64,000 bases of DNA from Odoribacter sp. UBA944 (GTDB lineage: Bacteria > Bacteroidota > Bacteroidia > Bacteroidales > Marinifilaceae): positions 26,305-90,304 of the forward strand of contig DBDA01000021.1 in assembly GCA_002293375.1 (NCBI GenBank). Reading direction: 5' to 3'. Of this stretch, positions 21,947-35,824 are shown piece after piece (the stretch's first letter is position 1; each line of letters begins with the position of its first letter). The notes beneath the pieces were generated by a model. That model saw only the letters and a program-made list of their open reading frames with translations, was not told the DNA's origin and ran no database searches. Made by a program: the position numbers and the translations under genes.

Positions 21947-22063
21947 GGTCCGAAGTTTAGGTAAACAATTCTTCTGCAAAGTAGGGTAATTATTCCCATT
22001 TTTCAAACAGATGGGCTCTTTATTCCAGGGTAACGGCCTGAAAAAATTCTTTTTCCACTGTCG

Positions 22064-22249
22064 CTTCGGTCTGTTGTTTCCGAAAGCGGGGCTCCGCTGC
22101 GGTTTACTATGCTCCGGCTTTTGCTGGAATCCGCAACCTCCTCAGTCGCGTTGCTCCTTCGTTGAGCAGGGCGGATTCCGGACGCTCAGCCGGAGCGAGT
22201 AAACCATTCGCAGCTCTCGCCCATGCTTTCGGAAATCAACAGGCCGAAG
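22064..22249. repeat. 186-nt near-perfect nested inverted repeat (long hairpin element: MITE/REP-like or structured RNA)
   Basis: Paired by hand. The outer arms are cttcggTctgttg-tttccgaaagc (22064-) and gctttcggaaaTcaacagGccgaag (-22249). Then come gctgcg..gtttact..gctccggct / agccggagc..agtaaac..cgcagc, then ggaatccgc / gcggattcc, then the apical cctCctca / tgagCagg. Confidence 0.8.
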
Positions 22250-22454
22250 CTTGGCGCGTTTCGGAAAATGATGTTGTTCCGGGAAATGTTTGGTGGATGT
22301 AAGTTTAAAGAACAGTAAATGAAATAAGCATTTTTGTGTTATTTTTAACGGGAAAGTGGACGGATGTAAGGAAATTTGGGTTACCTTAGCGCAGTGTAAA
22401 TCTGTATACTGGCAAAATAATGGAAAGAGATGCGTTTTTACGGATTTTTTTTCA

Positions 22455-22462
22455 TAATTTTG
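22455..22462 (+). promoter_or_regulatory. candidate Bacteroidota -7 promoter box (TAATTTTG) for the porP/sprF-like gene
   Basis: Exact TAnnTTTG match 55 nt upstream of the ATG at 22517, in an AT-rich stretch. I found no clean -33 TTTG at the expected spacing. Confidence 0.3.
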
Positions 22463-22516
22463 TATGTGGACGTTTTTTGAATAGCAGAGGTGGGACGTTT
22501 TAACTTGGTGGGGTGT

Positions 22517-23497
22517 ATGATGAAAAAGATTTTAACCATTGGCTTGTTGTTGTTGGGGGGTATCTGCACAGCGCAAAATGAGTTGTTTTCCCGGCAATAT
22601 TTTTTGAATAATTATTTGATGAACCCGGCTGTGGGGGGGATCAATGATTATATGGATCTGCGGGCGTCGTATAGCCGGCAATGGACGGCGATTGAGCACT
22701 CTCCTACATCCATGTTGTTGACTTTTAATGCGAACCTGGCCAAGGAGAAGGACCAGGTGTTGCGCTATTCGCCTTTTGAGAAACGGTATGCGGTGAGCAA
22801 GGGCGGCCTGGACCATTATGACCGCCGGATTAAGCACGGTGTCGGGGCGAAAGTTGTTTACGATAAGATCAACGGGTTTACGTATACGGATGCAACGGTG
22901 AGTTATGCCGCTCATATTCCGTTGACCGGGGCGTGGACGTTTTCCGCGGGGGTAGGGGGTGGTTTGTCGCTGTCGGCGATGGATCTTACCGGCCGGTATT
23001 TGGGGGAGGACTTGTCCGATCCGTTGCTGAACAACGGGAAGCGGAATGAGATGGTGCCGCTGGTGGAGGCGGGGGTTTGGCTTTACTCTACCGGGCCGTA
23101 TGTTGGCGCTTCTTTGACCCGTTATATGGAGGATCCGTACGATGAGGACCAGAAGGCGCGGTACATGAATATTTATGCGACGGCCGGTTGGCAGTTGCAG
23201 GCTTCCGAGCAGTTTGTGATCGTTCCTTCCGTGATGTACAAGCATGACGGTTATTCCGGGCACAATATCAATGTGAATGCGATGCTTTGGTTTACGGATA
23301 TTGCCTGGGCGGGTGTTTCGCTGCGCAATTTGGAGCATCCTTCGGTGCATGTCGGGGTGCTTTGGCGGAATACGCTGGAGTTGAATTATACGTATGACAT
23401 TAATAAGAGCGAATGGGGCGGCTCGCACGAGATCGGTATTGCTTACCGCATCTGGAACAAGGCCGATGATTGTAAGAATAAATGGTATTTTAAATAA
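22517..23497 (+). CDS. PorP/SprF-family type IX secretion system outer-membrane protein
   Basis: The track ORF is 22490..23497. The likely start is 'MMKKILTIGLLLLGG'. Signal peptide, then 'FSRQYFLNNYLMNPAVGG' (the PorP/SprF N-terminal signature). Beta-barrel-like alternating pattern and C-terminal 'GGSHEIGIAYRIW'. Confidence 0.85.
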   Translation: MMKKILTIGLLLLGGICTAQNELFSRQYFLNNYLMNPAVGGINDYMDLRASYSRQWTAIEHSPTSMLLTFNANLAKEKDQVLRYSPFEKRYAVSKGGLDHYDRRIKHGVGAKVVYDKINGFTYTDATVSYAAHIPLTGAWTFSAGVGGGLSLSAMDLTGRYLGEDLSDPLLNNGKRNEMVPLVEAGVWLYSTGPYVGASLTRYMEDPYDEDQKARYMNIYATAGWQLQASEQFVIVPSVMYKHDGYSGHNINVNAMLWFTDIAWAGVSLRNLEHPSVHVGVLWRNTLELNYTYDINKSEWGGSHEIGIAYRIWNKADDCKNKWYFK

Positions 23498-23505
23498 GCA
23501 GGGGG

Positions 23506-24726
23506 ATGGTACGAGCAGGTTTTCGGATCGGGTTGCCGGGCCTTTTGTTGGCTGTGTGGCTGGGGTTTTGTTTTCCGGCTTTTTCACAGGTGTATTATGT
23601 ATCCGTGAATGGCAATGATGGTAATAACGGCCAGAGTAAGGAGATGCCTTTTAAGACCATTTACAAAGCGCTGGCACAGCCCGGAGTGACGGAGGTGCTG
23701 GTTGCCGTAGGGGTTTATCCTGTTTCGGGGAAGATGGGGCAGCCGGGGGAGTTGGTGGTGCCTACGGGCGTCACGGTAAGGGGCGGTTACCTGGTTGTTG
23801 ACGGGACGATGACAGATACCCAGACGGACCATCCGGAAAGTATTGAAAACCAGACTATTTTACAAGGGGACTCCTCCTGCCGGATCGCGGTAGTGGGGGG
23901 TATTTTGGAGAACGTAACGGTTGCGGGGGGGCGCACCAAGGGGCAGAACGGAGGCGGCGTCTATGTGGAGCCCGACGGGGTTGTGCGGAATTGCATTGTT
24001 CGCAACAATTCGGCGACCGGTGGGAAGGTGAAGGTGGGTGATCTGTTTATGGAAAATTCGGCGGGTTTTTACTTTTTAAGCATGCAAAATTTCCAGATAG
24101 AGTTAAAGGAGCAGTTGGTGGGGGTTGTATTTTGGGTGAATCCGAACGACAATGTTCCGGACGAGGAGAAGGGAAAAGTGATTGCCTTTGCAACACAGAG
24201 TGCTAAATTTGCGGACAAGAACCCGGAAGAATACCCATTTTCAACCCCTTCTCCGCTGTATTATCCGACTTCCCGACTCGCTATGAGGGATCTGGATGGT
24301 GAACGAAATACGATTGATCTGCTTACTTACGATCCGACTATATTCCCGTTGACGAAGTCGTGTCGTGACTACAGAAGCGGTGAGGCGGACGCTGGCCGGT
24401 GGTATATGCCTGCTTGTGGAGAAGTTATGCAAATGTACGCAGAGTGGCTTGCGGTCAACAACACGTTTAAAATGGTGTGGGACAAAATGACACCGGAGGA
24501 GAGGATGCCCTGTTTTAATTTTCCGACGCGTGCTCTTGCTAATCGACCTTGGGAGGTCGCCGCCTATTGGTACGGCACATCCTTGTACACTTCCACGTTA
24601 TTTAGTGACCAAGGTATTTGGGTATATCAGAGTCCCCGTACAGTGGGTGTTCTGTTTAAAGAACAGACCGGAAGAAGTTTGTGGAATAGTGCCGGAGTAA
24701 TGACATATCCGATCCGAAAATTTTAA
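23506..24726 (+). CDS. secreted protein, small paralogue 1 of 4 (long form): beta-helix start fragment plus DUF1566/Lcl-C-like module
   Basis: 406 aa with a signal peptide '...CFPAFSQ'. 'YYVSVNGNDGNNGQSKEMPFKTIYKAL...VGVYPV' is a pectate-lyase-type beta-helix opening. 'GGGVYVEPDGVVRNCIVRNN' is a helix rung. 'VGVVFWVNPND' and 'GRWYMPACGEVMQMY' resemble the DUF1566 'WYLPSxxEL' core. Confidence 0.7.
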   Translation: MVRAGFRIGLPGLLLAVWLGFCFPAFSQVYYVSVNGNDGNNGQSKEMPFKTIYKALAQPGVTEVLVAVGVYPVSGKMGQPGELVVPTGVTVRGGYLVVDGTMTDTQTDHPESIENQTILQGDSSCRIAVVGGILENVTVAGGRTKGQNGGGVYVEPDGVVRNCIVRNNSATGGKVKVGDLFMENSAGFYFLSMQNFQIELKEQLVGVVFWVNPNDNVPDEEKGKVIAFATQSAKFADKNPEEYPFSTPSPLYYPTSRLAMRDLDGERNTIDLLTYDPTIFPLTKSCRDYRSGEADAGRWYMPACGEVMQMYAEWLAVNNTFKMVWDKMTPEERMPCFNFPTRALANRPWEVAAYWYGTSLYTSTLFSDQGIWVYQSPRTVGVLFKEQTGRSLWNSAGVMTYPIRKF

Positions 24727-24730
24727 TACG

Positions 24731-25654
24731 ATGAGAGCGGTAGTGATCAGTATATTGTTGTTTGCTTGTCTGACGGAATCTCGGGGACAGGGGATCGGAG
24801 GAGGGGTTTATTTGGAGGATAACGCCCTCTGTATCGGCTCTGTGGTCCGGAACAATCAGGCCCTGGATGGATTCGGGGTTGCGGGAGCTGCCGGGCACCT
24901 GATCAATTCGACGGTTGTGCAGAACGAGGTGCTCCCTGTGGACACGGTTGATTTCCAACCGGGCGATATCTATTGCGGAGACGGAAAGATACGGGATACG
25001 GCGGCGTACAGAAAACGGGACACCATGGATGCCATTGGCATTGTTTACTGGTGCCGCTTTGATTCGGATGTTCCTTACCCCCGGGGGGCTGTTGTGTCGT
25101 TGGAGGAGTTTCAGGGCCAGTGGGGGGCAGATATATATGTAGGGCAAGATCCGGAGATAGGTTATTCGACAAGAGGGTTAGATTATTCAATGGTGATGGT
25201 TATGGATACGGCCTGTTATACCATTACCCGGCATATTTACGAAGCGGCCAAAGCGTGGGGTGGAGGGGCAGAGTCGTACGCCGCTTACACCTGTTACCGG
25301 TATCATCATCCGGCCGAACAATCGACTCTGGAGCATCCGGATAGCAGGGAGGTGCAGTGGTGTTTGCCGACCTTCCTGTATTTTGTACGCATTTGGGCCG
25401 CCCTTCCGGAGGTGGAAGCGACCCTCTCTTTTTTGCAGGGGATGCGGGAATACGGGGGAGCGCAGTTGTTTTTGGCGGGAAAGGATTCCAGTAAGCCGTG
25501 TTGGTATTGGACTGCAAATGATGGAATGGGGCCACAAGGAAGGAATAGCGTGTTTCTCTTTGGTATATTTGGCGGCGTGCAGGCGGATTTTACACAGACT
25601 CTTGAATCCGATAAAAATCAACTTAATTACTACCGTCCGATTTTTATTTTTTGA
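24731..25654 (+). CDS. secreted or lipoprotein, small paralogue 2 of 4 (short form)
   Basis: 307 aa. Possible lipobox 'LLFAC'. 'GGGVYLEDNALCIGSVVRNN', 'IGIVYWCRFDSD' and 'VQWCLPTFLYFVRIW' align by eye with paralogues 1, 3 and 4. Confidence 0.65.
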   Translation: MRAVVISILLFACLTESRGQGIGGGVYLEDNALCIGSVVRNNQALDGFGVAGAAGHLINSTVVQNEVLPVDTVDFQPGDIYCGDGKIRDTAAYRKRDTMDAIGIVYWCRFDSDVPYPRGAVVSLEEFQGQWGADIYVGQDPEIGYSTRGLDYSMVMVMDTACYTITRHIYEAAKAWGGGAESYAAYTCYRYHHPAEQSTLEHPDSREVQWCLPTFLYFVRIWAALPEVEATLSFLQGMREYGGAQLFLAGKDSSKPCWYWTANDGMGPQGRNSVFLFGIFGGVQADFTQTLESDKNQLNYYRPIFIF

Positions 25655-25672
25655 CGGAGACGGGTACGTTTT

Positions 25673-26785
25673 ATGACGAGAAAAGTGAACATAGTGCTTC
25701 TGCTGCTGTTTGCAGGTTGTTTCCTCCCTCTTTCGGGGGGGGCGCAGGTCCGGTATGTCTCCTCTCCTTCTCGGGGAAACGGGAACGGAGAGAGTTGGGA
25801 AAATGCCTCAAGCAACATTGGAGAGATGCTTGCCCAGGGGAGTGAGGTGCGGGTGGCTTTGGGAACCTATGTGCTAAATGAAGAGTTGTTTGTTCCGGCG
25901 GGGAAACGGTTGACAGGGGGGTGGTTTGACGGCGAGCGGGTGGAGAGTGGAACAGAGAACACGGTCCTGGAAGCCCGGGGCGAACACCGGGTGGCAACAG
26001 TGGCCGGCTTGCTGGAAGGGGTGACGGTCACGAAGGGGTTGGCTGTGCGGGAGGATGGAGGCGGGTTGTTGGTCGAATCTACCGGGGAGGTGCGCAATTG
26101 CATTGTCCGGAACAACCGTTCGGCCCGTTATTATCCGCAGGTGGGGGATTATTTGGACAAAGACGGCAACCTGATACCGCAGGCGGGGTTAACCCCGTCC
26201 AATATGCCCGATGTGCGGGCCGTTGTTTTTTGGGTCAATCCGGATACGCTGGCGTCTAAAGGGAATAGAGGCTGGGCTGTAGCGGTGCCGGACGGGCCAG
26301 ACGGGGAGTTGTACAGTGGTCCGATGGATTTTGTTACCACTTGGGCTGAGACGGACGGTATATTGACCGATCATGCGTGTGCCACCCTGCGCGAAGCGTT
26401 GGCGGATACGGCCGGATGGGCGAATACGCAACGTATTGTGGCGAATTCCGACCCGGAAACGACGAGTGTGGCGCAAGCCTGTTTGGATTACGGGCGGGCA
26501 GGCGAAGAGATCCGGTGGTATTTGCCGGCGTTGGGACAGTTGCGTCATTTGGTCAGTGAGCTGTTGCCTGTGTATGCGTCTTATGCGCGCCTGATCCAGA
26601 ATGATGCGTATCAGAGTTTAATCATGTATAAGCCTTCTTACAGTTCAACCGAAGTAGGAGACAATGCTGTATGGAGTATACAATTTGATAGTGACTATTA
26701 CAATGAGAGTGGATACAACGGAGTAAATAAAACACGTAGAACTATCCCTAGTAATTTTCAATTAATACCGATAACCTCTTTTTGA
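25673..26785 (+). CDS. secreted or lipoprotein, small paralogue 3 of 4 (long form)
   Basis: 370 aa. Possible lipobox 'LFAGC'. 'VRYVSSPSRGNGNGESWENASSNIGEML...ALGTYVL', 'GGGLLVESTGEVRNCIVRNN', 'RAVVFWVNPDT', 'DTAGWANTQRIV' and 'IRWYLPALGQLRHLV'. Confidence 0.7.
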   Translation: MTRKVNIVLLLLFAGCFLPLSGGAQVRYVSSPSRGNGNGESWENASSNIGEMLAQGSEVRVALGTYVLNEELFVPAGKRLTGGWFDGERVESGTENTVLEARGEHRVATVAGLLEGVTVTKGLAVREDGGGLLVESTGEVRNCIVRNNRSARYYPQVGDYLDKDGNLIPQAGLTPSNMPDVRAVVFWVNPDTLASKGNRGWAVAVPDGPDGELYSGPMDFVTTWAETDGILTDHACATLREALADTAGWANTQRIVANSDPETTSVAQACLDYGRAGEEIRWYLPALGQLRHLVSELLPVYASYARLIQNDAYQSLIMYKPSYSSTEVGDNAVWSIQFDSDYYNESGYNGVNKTRRTIPSNFQLIPITSF

Positions 26786-26788
26786 GAG

Positions 26789-27610
26789 ATGAAGGGTGTG
26801 ATCTATACATGCATGGTGCTGTTTGCCGCCGTAAACGGGTGGGCTCAAACCGGGGGGGGGATCTATGTAAGGTCCGGCGGGAAGGTTGTCGGTACGGTTG
26901 TGCACGGGAATCTGGCGGAAGACGGGTACGGGCTTGCCGGAGGGGATGCGGAGGTGATCAATTCGACCGTTTGCACGAACGGGCCGATGGGCAACATCAT
27001 GGACGGCATACAACCCGGAGACATTTATTGCGCGGACGACACCATCCGTTCCCGGGCCGATTACGAGAAGAGAGCGGAAAAAGATGCCATCGGGGTGGTG
27101 TTTTGGGTAAACAGCAACTATTATGCCGCCTACCCGCGCGGGTATGTGGTGGCGTTGGAACAGTCCCTGCAACAGTGGACGGCAGGTATCCCCCGGTATG
27201 CAAACGCCCCCCTGAGCGATACGGCCTGTTACCAAAAGACACAGGAGCTGGCGGCGGCCGGCAATGAAGCGGCGATGTATTGCGCCGGATATGCCGCAGG
27301 CGGAGAGGTTGCAGGGAGATGGTGTATGCCGGCCGGGAGGCAGTTGTCGTTGCTGTATACGAATCAGGCGATTGTCAGCGAAACGTTGGATTTTCTCTCT
27401 AAGCCTGAGGAAGGGGCTGTTACAGGAAGTATAGCGGGCCTGGAGGAGACGTTGTATTGGAGTGTGAGCATTCGGGATGCGATGTATGTCTGGATGCAGG
27501 AGTTTCGGGCGCCGGAGGATATGGAGACGATATATTCAGGATCTTTTATCCGCCTTGATCCGAGTGCGGACCCTGCAGCTTATGCCGTACGTCCGATTTT
27601 TGTTTATTGA
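26789..27610 (+). CDS. secreted protein, small paralogue 4 of 4 (short form)
   Basis: 273 aa with a signal peptide '...VNGWAQ'. 'TGGGIYVRSGGKVVGTVVHGN', 'IGVVFWVNSNY' and 'GRWCMPAGRQLSLLY'. Confidence 0.7.
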   Translation: MKGVIYTCMVLFAAVNGWAQTGGGIYVRSGGKVVGTVVHGNLAEDGYGLAGGDAEVINSTVCTNGPMGNIMDGIQPGDIYCADDTIRSRADYEKRAEKDAIGVVFWVNSNYYAAYPRGYVVALEQSLQQWTAGIPRYANAPLSDTACYQKTQELAAAGNEAAMYCAGYAAGGEVAGRWCMPAGRQLSLLYTNQAIVSETLDFLSKPEEGAVTGSIAGLEETLYWSVSIRDAMYVWMQEFRAPEDMETIYSGSFIRLDPSADPAAYAVRPIFVY

Positions 27611-27625
27611 TTAAGCGTTTTGGCC

Positions 27626-30600
27626 ATGATAAAAAGAGTACATTGGGTGATGTTGTTGCTGTTGCTGGCGTGGGGAGCGCAAGCGCAGGAGGAAGGAGCT
27701 GCCGTTAAGCTGGGAACCGGAGCGAAGGTGAAAAATACGATTATCTGGGGAAACAAAGGCATTCAGTTGAATCCGGAAGTTACTCCGGAAACTTCTCATA
27801 TTTTTGCACCGGGGGTGGCATCTCCCCTTTTCCTGGATTCGCTGAACGGAGATTTCCGTTTGAGAAAGGGGTCGCCCCTGATCGATTCTGCCGATGTGGA
27901 TACCGATGCCGGGATGGGCCTTTATTTTGATGAAAACGCCCTTGATTTATGGGGAAATCCCCGCCTGAGCGGTACGAAATTCGATATCGGGGCGCACGAA
28001 TACCGGCTTTATAAGATTAGGTTCATCAAGGCACCCGAGGTCGTTATTGAGCAGGTGGCGGTGGATGGGCATGCCAGTGACTCCAATGGAGTGCATCTGG
28101 GGGAGACCTATAAATTCAGGCCCGTGTACGACGGTATAACGGGAATAGAGACGGACCTGGTTATTGTGCGGGACCTTACTTCGAATGAACTGATACCGGA
28201 TGAGGACGGGTATTATTATATCAGGGACGTTCAAACAGATAAAGAGGTCGAGATCATTGTGACGCCTCCTATTTTTGTCCGGGCCATGAAGAGTGCGAAC
28301 GGAATAATAGCGGTGACCAGAGAGGATAACACTACTGTCTCGACGCTTGTTAAGGATACGGTTATGGTGGTGGAGGAGAACGAGGAGGTGCGTTTGGATA
28401 CGACGGCGGACGAGGGGTACTACTGTTACGATGTGTATGTGGCAGCAGATGCAACCGGGCCTTGGTCATCCATTAAAAGCAAGGTCGGTGCAGGAAAATC
28501 TTATGCCGTTACGGGGGATGTTTGGTTTAGAGCGGAGTTCCGGCCCCGGTCCATCTCTATTGAATTGGAGGTAAACGACAGAAGTCGCGGAACGATCACT
28601 GTGACCGACAATGATTCTCCTCCCAATACTTACACGTTGGATGCCGGGAATACCGGATCGGGGAGTTTTACCTATGCGCCCGACAGGAGTTTTTCCGTAA
28701 CAGTCGCCCCGGAAACCGGCTATGAGTTGTCCTCGTTGACGGTATACGACGCGGACGGGAGTTCAAATGCCGAAGTCATCACCGCCGCCAAAACAACGAA
28801 TATGAGGTTGAACGGGTTGGTGATCAAAGCCGTTTTTGTACCGCTTACATATACGGTAACCTGGGATCCGCTCTATGCGACGCTTGTTGTTACACCGGGA
28901 ACAATGGAAGTGAACCCGTCCGGCGGGTTTATGATCGAAGAGGTAGAATACAATACCACCCTAACCGTTACTGCAACACCAGAGGAGGGGTATAACGTTA
29001 CCGGACTGACGGCGAACGGATTGACTACGGGTGTCTCTGCGACCGGAACTCCTTATCAGTGGAGCTATGTTGTGAAGGGCAATACCGAATTGGATGTGAC
29101 AACCGACTTGCAAAAGCAGACGGTAACCATTACTTCCAATACGCCTTTGGTCTTAGCGAATACGTGGTCGACGGCCCCTGTTTTGACGGGCGCCGGGGGC
29201 GATGAAATAGCGTATGGGAGTACGTTGGAGATCACGGTGTCTCCGGCAACCGGCTATGAGTGCATCCGTGCGGTGGTGAACGGGGCGGCGCCTCAGGCGG
29301 TGACCGGAAATAAACTCACGCTGCCGGCAATTACTTCGGCCCAGACGGTGGAATTGCAGTTTACCCGCATCCCATACGAAGTAACCTATATCAATGCGAC
29401 CCCCACCATGGGGAGCCTGACGGTGAGTAAACAGGAGCCTGACGCCAGCGCCTGGACGGCTTTTGTGAGCAGTCCGGGCAGTGCGGCGTACGGGGATAAG
29501 ATCAAGGCGGAAGTTTCTCCGAATACCGGTTATAAGCTTAAATCCCTGACGCTGACCCCTGACGGGGAGGGCCCTGTGGATTATACGTCGGCAGGAACCT
29601 TTGCAGTGGACCTGGAGAAGGACCTCGCTATTGCGGCGGAGTTTGAGCCGATCCTGTATACTGTTACGTTGAGGAAGGTATATGATCCTGCGTATGCAGG
29701 GCCGGAAGTGACAGGTACGGCCCCGACTGAGGGGAAGGTGGAGCTGAAGGTGGGGGGAACTACCCGGTTGACGGTGGATTATTCGGATGCGGACCATACC
29801 GGGACGGTCCAGTTGCCTTACGGAACGGTGGTGCAGGTGGTCCCGACGACTAATGTGGACTATGTTACCGACAAAATAGAGGCGGACGGGACAGACATTA
29901 CAACTCTCCGGCAATTTACGGTGACGGGGGATGCGGAGGCCGATGTATGGATTGTATACCACAAGACCGATTTTGCGGTAACCTGGGAGACGGTTTACAC
30001 CGGTTTTACCAGTACGATCGATGTACAAAAATCAGGTGGGGGCACTGTTCTTAACGGCAGCAGTTATCCGACCGGTACTGCTTTGGAGGTGATTGTGGAC
30101 CAGCAGGCGGGGGAATTTTGTACGGGGGTTTTTGCCAACGGGGTCGATATTACCGGAACAGATCCAGTGGCGAATCCTCCCACGGCAAGTATTAGCGGGG
30201 AGGCGATCCACTTTACCGCCGAGTTTGTTAAAATGTGTCGTGTTAAAATTACACCTCCGACGGGGGGCACCATTACTGTGAAGGACGATAAGGGTACCGT
30301 TTATAACGACGGTGACCCGGTTCCGGCCGGTACGACGCTTAAGGCGACCCTGGTGACTACGCTTCCCGGTTATTATTGCACCGGGTTGACCGCCGAGGGA
30401 AATTCGTTGTATGCGTGGAGCGGAACCTCCACGACCTCTCCGCCCACGACCACCGGGGAGCAAACGTATACGATCCCTGTGAACCATGCAGGCGGTGATA
30501 TTTTGTTTACAGGGACCGCGGCAGAATACTACTGTGTCAGGTTTACCACACCGATTAACGGAACGCTGGCGGTTGAAGCCGACGGGACTGCCTTGTCTGC

Positions 30601-33600
30601 CGGAACGCAGTATTGGTATCCGAAGAATGCAGCGATCGGCATTACGGCGGAGAATACGACTACAGGGTATACATTGAATGCATCCCGTGTTGTAAACAAC
30701 GCGGCCGATGCTTCGACGATAGTGTTGGACGAGATCAGCGCCGACCACTACGGGTTGGCAGCTCCTTTGGGGTTGGTGAAAGAGTTGGACCTCTCTGCCA
30801 CGTTTGTAAAGAAGGAGTACGCTGTTACGTTGAATTTGACAGGCCTTGGAGCAGCAAGCCGGACTGATGCCCTGGCGGCTATCGGGTTTACGGGGACCGG
30901 AGCGCCCGATTTAGATGTATTGTGGGAAGATGCAACTGATATAAGTGTCACTGTGCAGGTGGCCCACGGGGATAAATTGACCTTGCGTGCGGAACCTAAG
31001 CCCGGTTTTGCTGCCAAGCTGCAATTCAACTCTGTGGACGAACTGTCTCTTACCATGAATGTGATCAATCGGACAACGCCTGCCATTACGGGGCCGATGG
31101 TGATAGATCTAATCTTTGAACAGACTTATCAGGTTGATTACGATCCGACAGATATTTTGAAAGTGACCAAGGGGGGGAATGCAGTAGTCCGAAATGCGTA
31201 TGTGTTTGCCGGCGATGTGTTGCGGGGCTATACGGTGACCCCGGCCGTTTCTGACAAGTACAACAAGCTGGTCGTTTACAACAGTAGCGGCATGTCGGAG
31301 TATGTCAGCGGTATGGCTACGCAAAGCGACGGCACCATTGAATTGGACTTTACGATGCCGGCTTATAACGTGTATCTGGATGCGGAAAAAGGGTTGAAAA
31401 CTTTTGATCTGTCCACTGACCTCACAGATCCTTCCCTTGCAGCTACCCTGACGGTAAATAACCTGAAGGGCGGCCCTCCGGTGGAAGTTGTGGCGGGCAG
31501 TGATGTCTTGGCGTACGGGGATGAATTGCGGGTGGATATTACTTTACCTGCCAATGACGACCCGGCGCTGGGCGCTTTGACGGAGTCGTTGTATGAGGTA
31601 AAAGCCGTTCGGGTAACGATGGGTGGAACCAATCTCTCCGGTTCTTTGTCCGGTTCCGGTCTGGCATATAGTTATGCGGTTCCGCTACCGGTTTCGGGAG
31701 ATGTGGCCGTTACCGTTACCCTTGCGCGTAAAAGGCAGCATCTTATTTTACGGGTTGTCCCGTCCGGCAGGGATTTTGGGATTGAATGGAGTTGCGATAC
31801 CCTTCCCGGAGGCGCGTGGACGACTCCGGTTGTCTACAAAGGTCCTGCAGCCCAAACAAGTATTTCGTTGCCGGTGGGCACGAAGGTCAAAGCACGGGCT
31901 GTCGGAAGCGAGGAGGGGTATGAGTTGGAGTTTTTCCCGACCAGCGGTCAACAAATAACGACAGAGATTGACCGACAGTTGCAACTTGGTGGGAGCCTGA
32001 ATTTGTCGGTTCGCTTCAGACAACAAACATTCCCGTTACAGGTTACGGTAAAACCGGCAGGAGGCGGAGTGTTGAAATGGAGTGGCAGCGAATTGGTCAC
32101 GCAACGGGTTGTGTACGGCACATCGCTTTCTTCCATTGTTCCCGAACCGCTGAATACCTATTTCCGGTTGGATTCGGTAACGGCCTATATGGGTGGGGTC
32201 AATTTGTTCAAGAATCAGGTGTCTCCTTATGAAATAAGCAAGGTAACCGATTCGGTGGGTATTGAGATGCGTATGACCCGCCTGTATAAGATCCAGAAGG
32301 ATGTAGTGGGTGCCGGAGATATCGAGATACGCGAATTTGGGCAATCGGTTTCTGCCGTAGACGGTTTGTTTCCGGCGAATACCATTTTTCAGATAACGGT
32401 TTCCCCTCAGGACGACAGTTATGAATGTGTTTCCTTGCAGGCAATGCACTCGATGGGGGGTAATGCATTTATTCCGTCCGCCGGGGGATTGTATAGTATT
32501 AACCCGAGTTTAACTCAATACGATATTGTTATCCGGGCGGAATTTGCTTTAAAGACGCACGAAGTTTTCGTTCAGCGCGAACCTGTCGGAGGAGGGAATG
32601 CCGTTTTGTACCAAGGGGATAAAAGTAGCGGGGGAATTTTGTTGCTGGAGTTGGCGAACGATGATCCGCAGACGGCGACCATGCCGGTGTTGGTGGAGCA
32701 CGGGACTACTCTGCATTTTTATGCGGAACCTAATGGAGCGGATTATGAGGTTGCTTCCCTTGTGACAGGCGCAAACACGCTTTATACCCAGGGACAGCTG
32801 GTGGTGGTTACTTCGGATACCGTTTTCTCTGTGTCGTTCGGACGATTGTACCGGTTGCAAATTTTAGATGATAGCGTACAGGTGTATACATCCGGCGGGA
32901 TTAAACTTCCTGCGGACACGATGCTTGCGGAGGGTACGCCGTTGTATTTTGCAGCCAGCCGGTTTGGGAAGGCGTATACGGAGGTGACCCTCCGGGAGAC
33001 GGGAGCGGACCCGGCGGATCCAGCCCTGGAAGCGTGGACGACGGCGACCGACGGGGTGATCGAAGACCATTTTGAGATGCCGGGAGTCGATGCCGAAGTG
33101 AACGGCGCCAGCGATTGGAAGCGGTATACTGTACGGTATTCCGTTGCTCCCGATCCCCACGATGTACCGTCCGGAGATGGACAGTCTGCTATTACTGTAC
33201 GCTCCTTTACCGGTGTGTCGCCGGGAGTGCCTGTCGCCAATGGCGGTTCGGTGCAGCACGGAGATTCTTTGGAGGTGGTGCTGACCCCCCATGCCTGGTA
33301 CGATGTTGTGTCTATGACGGCGACTGTGGACCGTGTGCCGGCCGGTGTAAAATCGGGGGCGGATACGTTGCGGATCGCGGAGGCGCTGGGCGATGTGGAG
33401 ATAGCGGGTGTGGTGCTACGGAAGCAGCAAAAACTTTACATTTACCTGGAGGAGGAGGCGCTGGCTGATGGAGATACTGTCCGGGTGATCACGGAAGATG
33501 GAATACGGCATGACTATTTGGTATCAGACAGTTTGCCGGTAGATGTTGGTTCGAAAGTGGTTGTACAGGCTTTGTCCGGCTCCGCTTGTGTTATGGATTC

Positions 33601-35824
33601 GTTGATCACCGATCTGGGTGGGCGAGTCGTTGCTAAACCTTTTGAAACGACATTTGATATGCCGGTTGACAAAACGGCTTCGGTGACTGCTTATTTTTCT
33701 CTAAAAGAGTATCCGGTGCTGTTTGCGACTACTGAGGGAGGTACGATCATGGTTACGCCGACCTTTGACGGGGCGGTCGGTTCCCCGATAGACTCCGGAG
33801 ATTTGGTCAAACATTATACCGAATTGGCGATTTCCCTGACTGCGACGAGTGCTTCGTATATTTACCGGCCAGGCAATTTTATTACCCGGGTGGGAGCGAA
33901 TGTGGCTGCAAATCCCGCTGTGGTGCCTTCCGTGACGGATACGGTGCGGATTGAGGCGACGTTTGAACGGGTGTACGAGGTACGGGTGGTTCAACCGGAT
34001 GTGAAGCAGGGAACGCTGACTATTGCTTATGCGGGTAACAGTGCGGTGGGGAAACGGTATCTGGCCGGTACGGAGTTGGATGTAGCGCTTGTTCCACAGA
34101 CGGGGTATGAAGTAACCGGGCTTTTCATGAACGGGGTTTCGCAGGCGATCCTCCCGGCAGGCGGTGTTATTGTGTGTGAAGTTCCGGACAATCCGGCGGT
34201 GGATAGCGTAGAGTTTACGGTTACGTTGGCGGTGAAGCAGTATGATATTAAATATTTTGTATCCGGGAACGGTTCTTTGGCGGTGGAAGGGATGGCCGGC
34301 GGCCGGGTACTTTATAGCGATGTGAGCGGGGTGAGTCGCGCTGTTTCTCATTTCGATACGCTCTACCTGGAGGTGTCTCCGGGCTCTCCGGCTTACCGGG
34401 CGGTGAGGTATATTGTGAACCTGCCCGACGGAACTCCCCTTCCGGTGACGGCGACGGATACTGCGATCGTGGTGACGGGAAACCTGACTGTGGAGGTGGA
34501 ATTCGAGAAACAGTACGTAGTCATGTTTGAACAACCGCAGCAATTGCCGCGCCCGGAGGGCACTCTTACTGTTACACAGGACGGGCGGAACATCACTTCC
34601 GGGGAGTATGTGTGGGTGCCGCAACTTCAGAGTACCGGTTCGTTGTCTATAGACCTGGTTGAAGGGGAGGGGTATGATGTGGAGTTCCTGACGGTAAACG
34701 GTGTGGCGGTCAGCCAGCCTTTCGGGTTTGGATTTGCGAAAGAGGAGTTGTTCGATACCATTGTGATCGATGCGCAGTTGAAAGTCCGGGAACTTACCGT
34801 GGCGGTTGTTCAGCCCGCTTATGGAAAGATTGATTTGGTGGAACGGTCCGTTGATGATGGGGCGACCTGGCAGCCTTTGCCGGTGTTGACGCCTGTTACG
34901 GTGGATTATTGGGATCAGATCCGCGCTTTTGTTACTGTGGATGATCCCGCCCAGTTCCGGACGGATCACCTGTCGGTTGTGTCGGCGAGCGGTACGGGTT
35001 CGTTGCAGGAAGGGGTGGCGTGGACGATGAAGGAGGATGTGGTGTTGGAGGCGGTGATCATTCCCAACACGTATACTGTTTATTACGAGCAGCCGGACAA
35101 CGGGGCGTTGTGGGTGGAAACGTTGAACGGGGATACGGTTCGGGATGGCGAAGCGGTTTATTACCTGACGAAATTGATCGTCCGGGTGCAATTGGACGAC
35201 GAGGTCGGGTATGAATTGGCGGAGTTGACTGTTGATAATGTGGGGGTGGATGACCAGGATACCGTTACGGTGGAAGCAGATATGTATGTGTTTGCCCGGA
35301 TCGCCCTGCGTACCTGGGAGGTAACGACTTCGGCTACAGGACAGGGAGTTATACATGTTTACGATGAGCATGGATATGAGATATCTTCCCGGGCCGATCC
35401 CGGGTTGGTGAACCATTATGAGCGATTGCAGATCTCGTTCCGGCCGGCTGCGGGTTGGATGCTTTATGCACACGATTTGACCGGAACAGCTATGCAGCTC
35501 GACTCTACTTTTGTGGTGGAGGGGCATGTGGCGATCTTTGCGGATTTCCGGCAGATGGAGGAGTATCAGTTCCCGGCTGTTTTTACGCCGAACGGAGATG
35601 GTCAAAACGATACCTGGCAGGTGAAAGGTCTGTGGCAGGATCCGGAGAATACGTTGGAGATCTACAACCGGATGCAGCAACGGGTGTATAAGGTTTCGCC
35701 TTACCTGAATGAGTGGAACGGAACGACGGATGACGGAACGATCCTTCCGGCCGGGCATTACATCTATAAGTTGACGACCGGGAAAAAGGTGCATACGGGG
35801 ATCGTCTCTATTGTGAGAAATTGA
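27626..35824 (+). CDS. giant T9SS type B CTD surface repeat protein (SprB-like cargo)
   Basis: The track ORF is 27620..35824 (2734 aa, TTG). An ATG at 27626 gives 'MIKRVHWVMLLLLLAWGAQAQ'. After the signal peptide there is a beta-helix closing cap ('GDFRLRKGSPLIDSAD...DLWGNPR...FDIGAHEY'). About 25 divergent ~90-100-aa beta-sandwich repeats follow, each with a 'P..GY.(V/L)..L..NG'-type signature that resembles divergent InlB B-repeats. The C-terminus is a T9SS type B sorting domain. Confidence 0.85.
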   Translation: MIKRVHWVMLLLLLAWGAQAQEEGAAVKLGTGAKVKNTIIWGNKGIQLNPEVTPETSHIFAPGVASPLFLDSLNGDFRLRKGSPLIDSADVDTDAGMGLYFDENALDLWGNPRLSGTKFDIGAHEYRLYKIRFIKAPEVVIEQVAVDGHASDSNGVHLGETYKFRPVYDGITGIETDLVIVRDLTSNELIPDEDGYYYIRDVQTDKEVEIIVTPPIFVRAMKSANGIIAVTREDNTTVSTLVKDTVMVVEENEEVRLDTTADEGYYCYDVYVAADATGPWSSIKSKVGAGKSYAVTGDVWFRAEFRPRSISIELEVNDRSRGTITVTDNDSPPNTYTLDAGNTGSGSFTYAPDRSFSVTVAPETGYELSSLTVYDADGSSNAEVITAAKTTNMRLNGLVIKAVFVPLTYTVTWDPLYATLVVTPGTMEVNPSGGFMIEEVEYNTTLTVTATPEEGYNVTGLTANGLTTGVSATGTPYQWSYVVKGNTELDVTTDLQKQTVTITSNTPLVLANTWSTAPVLTGAGGDEIAYGSTLEITVSPATGYECIRAVVNGAAPQAVTGNKLTLPAITSAQTVELQFTRIPYEVTYINATPTMGSLTVSKQEPDASAWTAFVSSPGSAAYGDKIKAEVSPNTGYKLKSLTLTPDGEGPVDYTSAGTFAVDLEKDLAIAAEFEPILYTVTLRKVYDPAYAGPEVTGTAPTEGKVELKVGGTTRLTVDYSDADHTGTVQLPYGTVVQVVPTTNVDYVTDKIEADGTDITTLRQFTVTGDAEADVWIVYHKTDFAVTWETVYTGFTSTIDVQKSGGGTVLNGSSYPTGTALEVIVDQQAGEFCTGVFANGVDITGTDPVANPPTASISGEAIHFTAEFVKMCRVKITPPTGGTITVKDDKGTVYNDGDPVPAGTTLKATLVTTLPGYYCTGLTAEGNSLYAWSGTSTTSPPTTTGEQTYTIPVNHAGGDILFTGTAAEYYCVRFTTPINGTLAVEADGTALSAGTQYWYPKNAAIGITAENTTTGYTLNASRVVNNAADASTIVLDEISADHYGLAAPLGLVKELDLSATFVKKEYAVTLNLTGLGAASRTDALAAIGFTGTGAPDLDVLWEDATDISVTVQVAHGDKLTLRAEPKPGFAAKLQFNSVDELSLTMNVINRTTPAITGPMVIDLIFEQTYQVDYDPTDILKVTKGGNAVVRNAYVFAGDVLRGYTVTPAVSDKYNKLVVYNSSGMSEYVSGMATQSDGTIELDFTMPAYNVYLDAEKGLKTFDLSTDLTDPSLAATLTVNNLKGGPPVEVVAGSDVLAYGDELRVDITLPANDDPALGALTESLYEVKAVRVTMGGTNLSGSLSGSGLAYSYAVPLPVSGDVAVTVTLARKRQHLILRVVPSGRDFGIEWSCDTLPGGAWTTPVVYKGPAAQTSISLPVGTKVKARAVGSEEGYELEFFPTSGQQITTEIDRQLQLGGSLNLSVRFRQQTFPLQVTVKPAGGGVLKWSGSELVTQRVVYGTSLSSIVPEPLNTYFRLDSVTAYMGGVNLFKNQVSPYEISKVTDSVGIEMRMTRLYKIQKDVVGAGDIEIREFGQSVSAVDGLFPANTIFQITVSPQDDSYECVSLQAMHSMGGNAFIPSAGGLYSINPSLTQYDIVIRAEFALKTHEVFVQREPVGGGNAVLYQGDKSSGGILLLELANDDPQTATMPVLVEHGTTLHFYAEPNGADYEVASLVTGANTLYTQGQLVVVTSDTVFSVSFGRLYRLQILDDSVQVYTSGGIKLPADTMLAEGTPLYFAASRFGKAYTEVTLRETGADPADPALEAWTTATDGVIEDHFEMPGVDAEVNGASDWKRYTVRYSVAPDPHDVPSGDGQSAITVRSFTGVSPGVPVANGGSVQHGDSLEVVLTPHAWYDVVSMTATVDRVPAGVKSGADTLRIAEALGDVEIAGVVLRKQQKLYIYLEEEALADGDTVRVITEDGIRHDYLVSDSLPVDVGSKVVVQALSGSACVMDSLITDLGGRVVAKPFETTFDMPVDKTASVTAYFSLKEYPVLFATTEGGTIMVTPTFDGAVGSPIDSGDLVKHYTELAISLTATSASYIYRPGNFITRVGANVAANPAVVPSVTDTVRIEATFERVYEVRVVQPDVKQGTLTIAYAGNSAVGKRYLAGTELDVALVPQTGYEVTGLFMNGVSQAILPAGGVIVCEVPDNPAVDSVEFTVTLAVKQYDIKYFVSGNGSLAVEGMAGGRVLYSDVSGVSRAVSHFDTLYLEVSPGSPAYRAVRYIVNLPDGTPLPVTATDTAIVVTGNLTVEVEFEKQYVVMFEQPQQLPRPEGTLTVTQDGRNITSGEYVWVPQLQSTGSLSIDLVEGEGYDVEFLTVNGVAVSQPFGFGFAKEELFDTIVIDAQLKVRELTVAVVQPAYGKIDLVERSVDDGATWQPLPVLTPVTVDYWDQIRAFVTVDDPAQFRTDHLSVVSASGTGSLQEGVAWTMKEDVVLEAVIIPNTYTVYYEQPDNGALWVETLNGDTVRDGEAVYYLTKLIVRVQLDDEVGYELAELTVDNVGVDDQDTVTVEADMYVFARIALRTWEVTTSATGQGVIHVYDEHGYEISSRADPGLVNHYERLQISFRPAAGWMLYAHDLTGTAMQLDSTFVVEGHVAIFADFRQMEEYQFPAVFTPNGDGQNDTWQVKGLWQDPENTLEIYNRMQQRVYKVSPYLNEWNGTTDDGTILPAGHYIYKLTTGKKVHTGIVSIVRN
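35564..35821 (+). other. T9SS type B C-terminal sorting domain (gliding-motility-associated CTD / CHU_C type) of the giant protein
   Basis: 'YQFPAVFTPNGDGQNDTWQVKGLWQDPENTLEIYNRMQQRVYKVSPYLNEWNGTTDDGTILPAGHYIYKL' matches the hallmark 'F(T/S)PNGDGxND.W.I.G......(I/V).NRWG..V......W(D/N)G......(L/V)P.G.Y.Y'. Confidence 0.9.

Follow-up and report, generated by a model that had tools for sequence, protein, structure and literature searches.

What do four small tandem genes contribute when they stand between a PorP/SprF-family gene and the gene of a giant type B protein? We addressed this question in a window of 64,000 nucleotides from Odoribacter sp. UBA944, in which all the genes concerned lie on the forward strand. 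The first (22490..23497) encodes a PorP/SprF-family outer-membrane protein (Pfam PorP_SprF, 7.3e-42; TIGR03519, 1.6e-49) whose likely true start, read from the sequence, is the ATG at 22520, and a TAATTTTG box of the Bacteroidetes -7 type lies upstream at 22457. It is followed by long form 1 (O1, 406 aa, 23506..24726), short form 2 (O2, 307 aa, 24731..25654), long form 3 (O3, 370 aa, 25673..26785), short form 4 (O4, 273 aa, 26789..27610) and the gene of a 2734-aa giant surface protein (27620..35824; CHU_C 2.4e-19, TIGR04131 4e-16, Flg_new_2 7.8e-11). O1-O4 are co-directional with intergenic gaps of 4, 18 and 3 nt, confirming the four tightly spaced, back-to-back ORFs of these lengths described in an earlier, sequence-only reading of this DNA. 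The PorP/SprF protein is the cognate anchor or shuttle of the type B cargo, and pairing of type B cargo with a PorP partner has been reported (PMC9143113, PMC12618676).

All four small proteins begin with a Sec signal peptide, which is followed by a truncated right-handed beta-helix of the DUF1565 type and then by a divergent C-type-lectin-like domain of the Lcl_C (DUF1566) family. O1, delimited with Pfam DUF1565, AF2/Foldseek and local HMM boundaries, has a signal peptide at residues 1-27 (cut S27|Q28), a capped opening with about five DUF1565-type rungs at residues 28-176 (nt 23587-24033) and the Lcl_C/DUF1566-like domain at residues 177-406 (nt 24034-24723). The corresponding parts of O3, identified by BLASTP to O1, HMM matches and its position-3 clade, are the signal peptide (residues 1-24, cut A24|Q25), the opening with rungs (residues 25-154, nt 25745-26134) and the Lcl_C-like domain (residues 155-370, nt 26135-26782). 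While the long forms keep the helix opening and about five rungs, the short forms keep only two uncapped rungs. In O2 (BLASTP to O4, rung and C-module HMM matches, position-2 clade) a signal peptide (residues 1-19, cut G19|Q20) precedes these rungs (residues 20-74, nt 24788-24952) and the Lcl_C-like domain (residues 75-307, nt 24953-25651), and in O4 (BLASTP, tree and HMM) the signal peptide (residues 1-19, cut A19|Q20), rungs (residues 20-73, nt 26846-27007) and Lcl_C-like domain (residues 74-273, nt 27008-27607) were delimited likewise. The GGG rung of the short forms always begins 2-6 residues past the signal-peptide cut, whose A/G|Q pattern fits the Bacteroidetes Q-rule (PMC5837995).

The canonical beta-helix opening expected for the long forms was found as YYVSVNGNDGNNG and VRYVSSPSRGNGNG, and O1 matched Pfam DUF1565 with 24.4 bits (cut-off 20.3) over profile positions 1-62 of 257, that is, the non-catalytic opening only. 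DUF1565 was the sole Pfam or NCBIfam match of O1-O4; neither a T9SS CTD (Pfam, NCBIfam) nor a conserved lipobox was detected in them. Among the shared motifs proposed earlier, the rung motif (GGGVYVEPDGVVRNCIVRNN, GGGVYLEDNALCIGSVVRNN, GGGLLVESTGEVRNCIVRNN and GGGIYVRSGGKVVGTVVHGN in O1 to O4) and the W-x-x-P motif (RWYMP, QWCLP, RWYLP, RWCMP) are present throughout, and the strand motif (VGVVFWV, IGIVYWC, RAVVFWV, IGVVFWV) departs from its pattern in O3, which has A where the pattern demands G.

The AF2 model of O1 (pLDDT 76) supports the proposed combination of a beta-helix fragment with a DUF1566-like module, since its Foldseek matches comprise 4eps (4.7e-7), the beta-helix lyase 5olr (3.5e-3) and 8q4e (prob 1.0, TMt 0.60). 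DUF1566 proteins and phage tail fibres also appear among the fold matches. Besides, the family profile matched proteins P0057, P0060 and P0156 (E 2.5e-62, 6.2e-60 and 2.4e-38), which score 73-114 bits against Pfam Lcl_C (cut-off 34.9), and the C-module HMM matched their tandem modules with iE values of 5e-11 to 2e-16 per module. Judged by these profiles, the C-terminal module of O1-O4 is a divergent Lcl_C domain. The model of O4 was poor (pLDDT 46), so its fold is deduced by way of its homologues, the long forms and a single-chain protein discussed below (L012:9662-12103). A relationship to FISUMP, also suggested earlier, found no support: Fib_succ_major gave no match, and hhalign against the three FISUMP domains of the window returned a probability of 0.5%.

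The lectin-like fold anticipated for these proteins is shared with the C-terminal domain of the Legionella collagen-like adhesin Lcl (PF07603 Lcl_C, formerly DUF1566; 8q4e), which has the same C-type-lectin-like fold and is a head domain tied to a long stalk, as the module of O1-O4 would be. However, O1-O4 alone score below the Pfam Lcl_C cut-off, their module is longer (about 200-230 aa), beta-helix rungs precede it where Lcl has a collagen stalk, and the stalk belongs to a different polypeptide. The best solved-structure match by both fold (4.7e-7) and sequence profile (E 2.3e-6) is BACOVA_04982 (4eps), a fimbrial protein of Bacteroides ovatus, also one of the Bacteroidales, where the module is part of a surface appendage and shares the motifs VGDyy.aDGS, IGIVcWV, WYvPS.GEL and YWSST. 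In 4eps, by contrast, the module forms the C-terminal portion of one fimbrial subunit, which has neither beta-helix rungs nor a T9SS/PorP context.

Pairwise BLASTP showed that O1 is closest to O3 (1.8e-31, 31% identity over 325 aa) and O2 to O4 (2.7e-33, 32% identity over 263 aa), as the sequence-only reading had expected, while the cross pairs were weaker (O1-O4 1.2e-8, O3-O4 2.7e-6, O1-O2 6e-5, O2-O3 0.03), and common ancestry of all four is borne out by this paralogy. The tree resolved four position-specific orthologue clades with the deepest split between long and short forms, which agrees with the proposed duplication of a two-gene unit and indicates a single old duplication of a long-short pair, after which all four genes were retained. 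Within the four orthologue groups, the rungs are the best-conserved stretch, with a pairwise identity of 0.5-0.66; for the distal half, which is lectin-like, the value is 0.1-0.3.

The order PorP/SprF, long, short, long, short, giant type B protein was found in every locus recovered, from Culturomica and Odoribacter-like lineages with identity down to about 30%, with genes a few nucleotides apart or overlapping; the linkage to the porP-like gene and the type B cargo thus holds in other genomes, as had been predicted. This conservation bears on two other explanations. O1-O4 might be decaying, functionless fragments of a broken giant gene, as the pieces do resemble a stop-interrupted helix module, but each has its own start, signal peptide and conserved terminal aromatic residue, and the four clades are retained in at least eight loci, where identity is 30-68% and the cores are conserved; conservation has already largely refuted this highly implausible origin. 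It also appears improbable that they share the operon with the adhesin without binding it and work independently, as small polysaccharide-active enzymes or as glycan-binding proteins that are secreted or stay in the periplasm. Their helix resembles that of polysaccharide lyases (5olq/5olr, 1ru4) and the island is rich in other C-type-lectin-fold genes, namely six downstream paralogues that carry FGE-sulfatase-like and FISUMP domains. Yet about five rungs in the long forms and two in the short forms make too short a helix, the DUF1565 match is confined to the non-catalytic opening, the linkage to the giant gene is invariant, and Odoribacter sp. Z80 lacks the six paralogues directly downstream of that gene.

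The last rung and closing cap missing from O1-O4 correspond to the mature N-terminus of the giant protein (residues 23-136, 27686..28027), which carries one rung (EEGAAVKLGTGAKVKNTIIWGNKG) and a choice-of-anchor-Q-like closing cap, conserved in six lineages; residues 79-128 matched NF041518 choice_anch_Q at E 2.3e-4, with a score of 21.3 bits that falls short of the cut-off of 25. After this truncated helix end come a long stalk with Flg_new_2 (InlB B-repeat) domains and the type B T9SS CTD (residues 2651-2728, nt 35570-35803; CHU_C, TIGR04131). By HMM, within the locus, the giant protein alone carries the closing part and the long forms alone carry the opening, giving two openings against one closing piece. 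The closing piece on the cargo had been overlooked in the sequence-only reading. DUF1565/Pel9A-like modules, tandemly repeated in giant surface proteins, are built from the same kinds of opening, rung (GGG.Y....G.v.NC.i..N.A) and closing choice-of-anchor Q cap, but form a continuous single-chain stretch, whereas here the pieces are divided among different genes and interrupted by a lectin-like domain, a stop codon and another signal peptide. Among 250 complete modules of other proteins, a set biased by having been picked via the helix profile itself, the opening, extra rungs and closing part always followed in this order (opening-to-closing gap: median about 110 aa, 10th percentile 43 aa), and in none of the full-length proteins of the set did the closing part lie right behind a signal peptide.

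We tentatively read O1-O4, with somewhat less than an even chance of being right, as Sec-exported accessory lectin-like subunits, with no CTD or lipid anchor of their own, of a T9SS type B surface adhesin system. They would be co-transcribed with the PorP/SprF-like anchor and the Flg_new_2-stalk protein and would bind the latter non-covalently, supplying its ligand-binding heads; in Lcl, the DUF1566 fold is the binding head (PMC11162425). The beta-helix fragments are the likely docking surfaces: the long forms could provide the capped opening and rungs, the short forms two rungs with a free N-terminal edge and the giant protein the last rung and closing cap, so that together the pieces would make a canonical helix module. 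The type B CTD of the giant protein may then take the whole complex through the T9SS, and the PorP-like protein may retain it on the cell. The observations behind this reading are the domain composition, the paralogy, the operon conservation and the fusion of the same domain types elsewhere. Indeed, L012:9662-12103 combines a signal peptide, two Lcl_C-like modules, three Flg_new_2 repeats and a weak Por_Secre_tail match (E 0.0085, below cut-off), and P0156 is an S8 peptidase with ten Flg_new_2 and three Lcl_C stretches. These single chains contain the same lectin-like heads and InlB-B-repeat stalk and, at the sequence level, lend Rosetta-stone support to the subunit reading, even though their heads are covalently fused, they have no beta-helix pieces, and the CTD match of L012 is of type A.

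Several points argue against this reading. The short-form model is unreliable, so the two rungs could simply lie against the lectin-like domain of the same chain; in the long forms, where some 5 residues separate this domain from the last rung, it might itself close the helix there; the two openings do not match the single closing piece in number; and no precedent for T9SS export of CTD-less passengers was found in the literature. Moreover, canonical Ca2+/sugar motifs are absent from Lcl-CTD (PMC11162425), so a protein with this fold need not be active as a lectin. The same split-helix anatomy would also suit periplasmic holdases or chaperones whose uncapped rungs transiently shield the giant protein's open N-terminal helix edge until secretion and are then released. 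Beta-solenoid termini fray easily and need caps (PMC13288671), and O1-O4 lack an export signal (CTD) of their own. Nevertheless, we consider such a role decidedly doubtful, as four distinct, separately conserved proteins are excessive for one edge, their large lectin-like domain would have no role, and the fusions elsewhere fix the module permanently on a secreted protein.

In the sprCDBF operon of F. johnsoniae, the small helper genes SprC and SprD are transcribed together with the genes of a giant adhesin that has a type B CTD and of its PorP/SprF partner. The earlier analogy with sprC/sprD stands as far as position is concerned, since SprC/SprD and PorE-like genes are likewise small accessory genes beside a type B adhesin or PorP, but no sequence or domain resemblance was found (Pfam/NCBIfam: DUF1565 only), and the gene order differs, with O1-O4 placed between the porP-like and cargo genes. 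Six porP-like genes of F. johnsoniae adjoin porE-like (OmpA_C) genes, and PorP-PorE cell-wall anchoring has been proposed (PMC9143113). O1-O4 directly follow the porP-like gene, the locus contains no porE-like gene, and a Sec signal peptide with neither T9SS CTD nor conserved lipobox implies a periplasmic location by default; O1-O4 could accordingly fill the place of PorE as anchors or adaptors that link the complex of PorP-like protein and type B cargo to the cell wall or other envelope glycans. We regard this as unlikely, although less so than the other alternatives, because they have no known peptidoglycan-binding domain, all characterised or fused contexts found for the module are extracellular (Lcl adhesin, 4eps, phage tail fibres, L012), and the complementary helix end on the distal N-terminus of the cargo would be left unexplained.

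Overall, the domains of this locus are known, whereas their split and conserved four-gene layout, found in a few gut Bacteroidales, has not previously been described. In these bacteria, O1-O4 may act as binding subunits of the giant protein.

The four small ORFs, here O1 to O4, that had been described from the sequence as lying back to back are co-directional on the + strand, with the long forms O1 (23506-24726, 406 aa) and O3 (25673-26785, 370 aa) alternating with the short forms O2 (24731-25654, 307 aa) and O4 (26789-27610, 273 aa), and they are separated by gaps of only 4, 18 and 3 nt. Pairwise BLASTP comparisons gave E-values of 1.8e-31 for O1-O3 and 2.7e-33 for O2-O4, and of 1.2e-8, 2.7e-6, 6e-5 and 0.03 for the long-short cross pairs, demonstrating that the ORFs are real paralogues in which the first groups with the third and the second with the fourth, as the sequence-only reading anticipated. 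The motifs it listed as shared by all four were also present, except that O3 reads RAVVFWV, without the glycine at the second position of the pattern. Upstream of O1 lies a PorP/SprF-family gene (22490-23497; PF11751, 7e-42; TIGR03519, 1.6e-49), and downstream of O4 a giant gene (27620-35824, +) whose 2734-aa product contains Flg_new_2 (InlB B-repeat) domains in Pfam and NCBIfam scans and ends in a type B T9SS CTD (PF13585, 2.4e-19; TIGR04131, 4e-16). The presumed neighbourhood of anchor and cargo was therefore recovered, and the pair is also conserved in relatives. Type B CTD cargo needs a cognate PorP/SprF protein, usually encoded by an adjacent gene, for secretion and surface anchorage (PMC9143113, PMC12618676).

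A Bacteroidetes-type TAATTTTG box was found upstream of the porP-like gene. The terminator scan returned chance-level counts (19 found vs 15.0 expected), with no evidence for a terminator inside the four-gene block, and counts were also at chance level in the sigma-70 promoter scan, which does not model Bacteroidetes promoters. An unusually long non-coding stretch (22007-22489, ~480 nt), GC-rich and partly self-complementary, separates the divergent DUF4301 and porP-like genes, and an 83-aa ORF is called at the same interval in relatives. The public gene call for O1 (P0001, 360 aa, 100% identical) starts at MPFKTIYKAL and lacks the signal peptide and helix opening of O1; the longer start at 23506 is backed by orthologues. 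Members of the family are publicly named only as "DUF1565 domain-containing protein" or "hypothetical protein". Regarding a likeness to SprC/SprD, no family match beyond DUF1565 was found for O1-O4 in Pfam and NCBIfam, libraries that may hold no SprC/SprD models.

The C-terminal part of the four proteins (the C-module) can be related to the Lcl_C/DUF1566 family only indirectly. The Pfam model Lcl_C (PF07603, gathering score 34.9 bits) did not match O1-O4 at E<=1, and it matched only four of the 17 family members, with a best E-value of 0.003; Pfam and NCBIfam scans of O2-O4 found nothing. The family profile detected three large proteins from the homologue searches, P0057 (2.5e-62), P0060 (6.2e-60) and P0156 (2.4e-38), in matches that run through the C-module, and the C-module HMM recognized each of their tandem modules with iE values of 5e-11 to 2e-16. 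Because these same proteins score as Lcl_C in Pfam (84.6, 113.8 and 73.2 bits, respectively, vs the cut-off of 34.9), the link of the C-module to Lcl_C can be considered firm as a case of transitive profile homology. Moreover, a module in the goat-rumen Bacteroidales locus L012 bridges O4 (BLASTP, 5e-8) and Lcl_C (34.1 bits).

Structure prediction points in the same direction. The AF2 model of O1 (pLDDT 76) shows the short beta-strands typical of a right-handed parallel beta-helix at residues 28-171, followed by a hairpin (180-191) and a mixed alpha/beta domain that extends to the C-terminus. Its best PDB match in Foldseek was 4eps, a Bacteroides ovatus fimbrial protein (E 4.7e-7), which the 17-member family profile also finds by sequence (E 2.3e-6) and which has in common with the family the motifs VGDyy.aDGS, IGIVcWV, WYvPS.GEL and YWSST. 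The model also matched the C-terminal domain of Legionella Lcl (8q4e_A, probability 1.00, TMt 0.60), and in the prediction the O1 C-module has the C-type-lectin-like fold seen in 8q4e. The DUF1566-containing domain of Lcl forms a stalk-borne, C-type-lectin-like head and binds sulphated glycans without classical Ca2+ motifs; Lcl also shows trimer formation and a basic glycosaminoglycan-binding surface (PMC11162425). Additional Foldseek matches in the PDB included beta-helix rhamnogalacturonan lyases, while those in a viral structure library included tail fibres and phage DUF1566 proteins, among them proteins of the uncultured crAss-type phages cr10_1 and cr116_1. The short-form model (pLDDT 46, from a 7-sequence alignment) was too poor to judge the fold.

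The resemblance of the C-module to FISUMP (Fib_succ_major) domains suggested by the sequence-only reading was not supported, since no PF09603 or TIGR02145 match was obtained at E<=1 in Pfam and NCBIfam. A direct hhalign comparison with the three true FISUMP domains of the window gave a probability of 0.5%, in a test of low power owing to its 3-sequence target, and indicated no relation. DUF1566 and FGE-sulfatase C-type-lectin folds are common targets of diversity-generating retroelements, and the reading of the lectin fold as a hypervariable target was rejected, as neither a template/variable repeat pair nor a reverse transcriptase was found. The direct-repeat families listed at 22000-64000 (20 of 22) all map to paralogous coding regions and include no near-identical pair at the 3' end of the O1-O4 genes, and there was no reverse transcriptase among the window ORFs scanned.

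The N-terminal parts of the four proteins appear as fragments of a beta-helix. O1 matched DUF1565 (PF07602) with 24.4 bits at residues 34-97 (cut-off 20.3), covering only profile positions 1-62 of 257; matches to this family occur in 8 of the 17 relatives (best 2.7e-10), and relatives also match a Pel9A-like beta-helix family. O3 has no direct DUF1565 match and is homologous to O1 (1.8e-31). Local HMMs were built for three pieces (helix part of the long forms, rungs of the short forms and N-terminal part of the giant protein), and their distribution in the window placed the helix opening only in O1 and O3. Alignment of the short with the long forms starts at the last rung, the short forms having one extra rung, and in every orthologue the mature short form starts 2-6 residues before the first GGG rung, which therefore leaves an uncapped N-terminal helix edge. 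The giant protein carries one rung (EEGAAVKLGTGAKVKNTIIWGNKG) directly after its signal peptide, followed by a choice-of-anchor-Q-like cap (NF041518, E 2.3e-4, below cut-off), and this N-terminus was kept in all six lineages examined. Taken in gene order, the pieces are an opening in O1, two rungs in O2, another opening in O3, two further rungs in O4, and the closing rung with its cap in the giant protein; what separates one piece from the next is, in each case, a lectin-like domain, then a stop codon and then a new signal peptide. Within the window, the closing part occurs only in the giant protein and the lectin-like module only in O1-O4, none of which holds a complete one-chain module of opening, middle rungs and cap, the long forms being limited to the opening and rungs and the short forms to two rungs. 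Beta-solenoid ends fray unless capped (PMC13288671). O1-O4 might serve as transient holdases for the open helix edge, which we regard as quite improbable.

Unrelated giant proteins show how such pieces are arranged elsewhere. In 250 complete modules the order was always opening, extra rungs (median gap ~110 aa; 10th percentile, 43 aa) and closing part, contiguously, and a closing part directly after the protein start was seen in one truncated fragment only, in a local set that is biased. No single-chain protein in which helix pieces and Lcl_C modules alternate, the arrangement that would best have supported a helix assembled in trans, was present among the top 150 representatives, and the four large C-module proteins found there (P0057, P0060, P0109 and P0156) matched none of the three helix-piece HMMs.

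The long/short-form family is rare. A word-seeded search recovered 10 relatives of O1 and 6 of O4, and a pattern scan covering 185,579 species, each represented by one genome, identified five carriers, four of them Culturomica or Odoribacter and the fifth a goat-rumen Bacteroidales MAG with a different architecture. An exhaustive HMM search found the full two-domain layout in ~30 long-form and ~12 short-form clusters at 50% identity, the thousands of other matches stemming from the generic helix part. Wherever a locus included sufficient flanking sequence, the gene order was identical, running from DUF4301 (opposite strand) through PorP/SprF, long, short, long and short to the giant Flg_new_2/CHU_C gene, and this synteny holds even at ~30% identity among O1 orthologues. 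A neighbour-joining tree (215 shared columns) first split long from short forms and then resolved four clean clades corresponding to gene positions 1 to 4. These position-specific clades support the suspected duplication of a two-gene unit and indicate that the long-short pair was duplicated once, before the lineages diverged, with all four genes kept ever since, which argues for non-redundant roles. Gene debris is contradicted by this conservation and is hardly credible as an explanation of O1-O4, and that they are glycan-binding proteins or enzymes with no link to the giant protein also seems to us of low probability. Conservation within a given position was strongest in the rungs, GD hairpin and GVVFWVN strand (0.5-0.66 pairwise identity), and the distal half of the lectin-like domain varied most (0.1-0.3). 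One Odoribacter-like lineage has an extra ~2613-aa PKD-repeat protein between DUF4301 and the porP-like gene (loci L004, L013 and L014, 1088-8929; L010, 50-5650), without helix or Lcl_C pieces and with a C-terminal tail in which, on visual inspection, a type B CTD can be read, so in this lineage one PorP-like protein may serve two giant cargos.

All four proteins carry hydrophobic N-terminal leaders ending in a conserved A/G|Q site of the signal peptidase I type, a pattern typical of Bacteroidetes (PMC5837995). Lipobox-like strings occur in O2 (LFAC) and O3 (FAGC), and the lipoprotein hypothesis was rejected because the cysteine is absent from orthologues. No T9SS CTD was detected in O1-O4 (Por_Secre_tail, CHU_C, TIGR04131 and TIGR04183, E<=1, Pfam and NCBIfam), and the proteins end inside the lectin-like domain. 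They could in principle act as periplasmic adaptors that replace PorE-like anchors, a role we consider unlikely. An aromatic residue is the very last one in all 17 members of the alignment of O1-O4 and 13 relatives (...VRKF, ...ITSF, ...RPIFVY, ...RPIFIF); such conservation of a terminal F/Y is unusual for a soluble protein and recalls C-terminal recognition signals.

The current understanding treats a type B CTD adhesin and its PorP/SprF partner as a two-component pair. We tentatively favor, at somewhat less than even chances, the general reading that O1-O4 serve the giant adhesin as accessory binding subunits. Docking would most economically occur by the stacking of complementary helix fragments of O1-O4 and the giant protein, and the complex might then be exported via the CTD of the latter. 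A more specific version, which we find doubtful, is that the beta-helix is built in trans by rung complementation and that the CTD-less O1-O4 leave the cell as passengers on the type B cargo. A long form would supply the capped opening, one or two short forms the middle rungs, and the giant protein the last rung and cap, thereby mounting several lectin-like heads on the distal tip of the fibre. Weak points of the proposed mechanism as a whole are the unbalanced stoichiometry, with two openings for one closing piece, and the closeness of the lectin-like domain to the last rung; besides, a search of the literature for proteins that leave through the T9SS as passengers ("hitchhiking") turned up nothing relevant and no precedent. 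If true, the specific version would bring two novelties, the assembly of a solenoid between molecules and the export of passengers by the T9SS.

Fusions elsewhere bear on the general reading of O1-O4 as binding subunits. In the goat-rumen MAG, an 813-codon ORF (L012:9662-12103) combines a signal peptide, two Lcl_C-like modules and three Flg_new_2 repeats with a weak type A CTD match (Por_Secre_tail, E 0.0085, below cut-off), and has neither beta-helix pieces nor a PorP neighbour, while P0156 joins an S8 peptidase to Flg_new_2 (10 stretches) and Lcl_C (3 Pfam stretches). Since both proteins fuse Lcl_C with Flg_new_2, their domain composition argues that Lcl_C heads and Flg_new_2 stalks work together outside the cell.

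Directly downstream of the giant gene are six tandem paralogues of 1126-1230 aa (35866-58054, +), five with a weak mid-protein match to FGE-sulfatase (C-type-lectin fold) and the third (42938-46618) with only a weak F5_F8_type_C match in the middle. Their C-termini match ALK/LTK glycine-rich in two cases (130-140 bits), Fib_succ_major in three and, weakly, fibrinogen_C in one, and in Odoribacter sp. Z80 the array was not detected immediately downstream of the giant gene. A second giant ORF (58092-64000, +), of which >1960 aa fall inside the window, continues past its end and is built of Ig-like repeats with a recurring GRYYC.VTD motif, including an "Ig_7 CHU_C-associated" domain; this ORF probably encodes a further T9SS type B cargo, and the minus-strand ORFs called over the same interval are probably spurious. 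A further member of the C-type-lectin fold, a stand-alone 503-aa protein (2980-4491, -; FGE-sulfatase, 2.8e-41), lies ~20 kb upstream. Additionally, the + strand shows a strong and sustained positive GC skew at 16000-64000, which lies between +0.12 and +0.26 in the majority of 2-kb windows, peaks at 0.26 in those at 22-24, 34-36 and 62-64 kb and falls to 0.016 at 36-38 kb and 0.074 at 56-58 kb. Since the skew extends over the metabolic genes at 16-22 kb, which lie on the minus strand, an effect of the coding strand alone does not account for it.

Overall, the building blocks described here all belong to known families (DUF1565, choice-of-anchor Q, Lcl_C, Flg_new_2, PorP/SprF and type B CTD), and the conserved block of four CTD-less helix-fragment-plus-lectin genes that sits between the anchor and cargo genes, the cargo itself bearing the closing piece, is undescribed as far as the searched libraries and literature show. 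In gut Odoribacteraceae, a set of four dedicated lectin-like proteins that lack T9SS export signals, locked between anchor and cargo genes and carrying fold fragments that fit the truncated N-terminus of the cargo, provides a compact, conserved and testable case. Should O1-O4 stay periplasmic, they would be PorP-associated envelope factors of a new class. Attachment to the fibre would amount to a modular equipping of a T9SS adhesin with exchangeable heads, and could reveal a new use of uncapped beta-solenoid edges for assembly.
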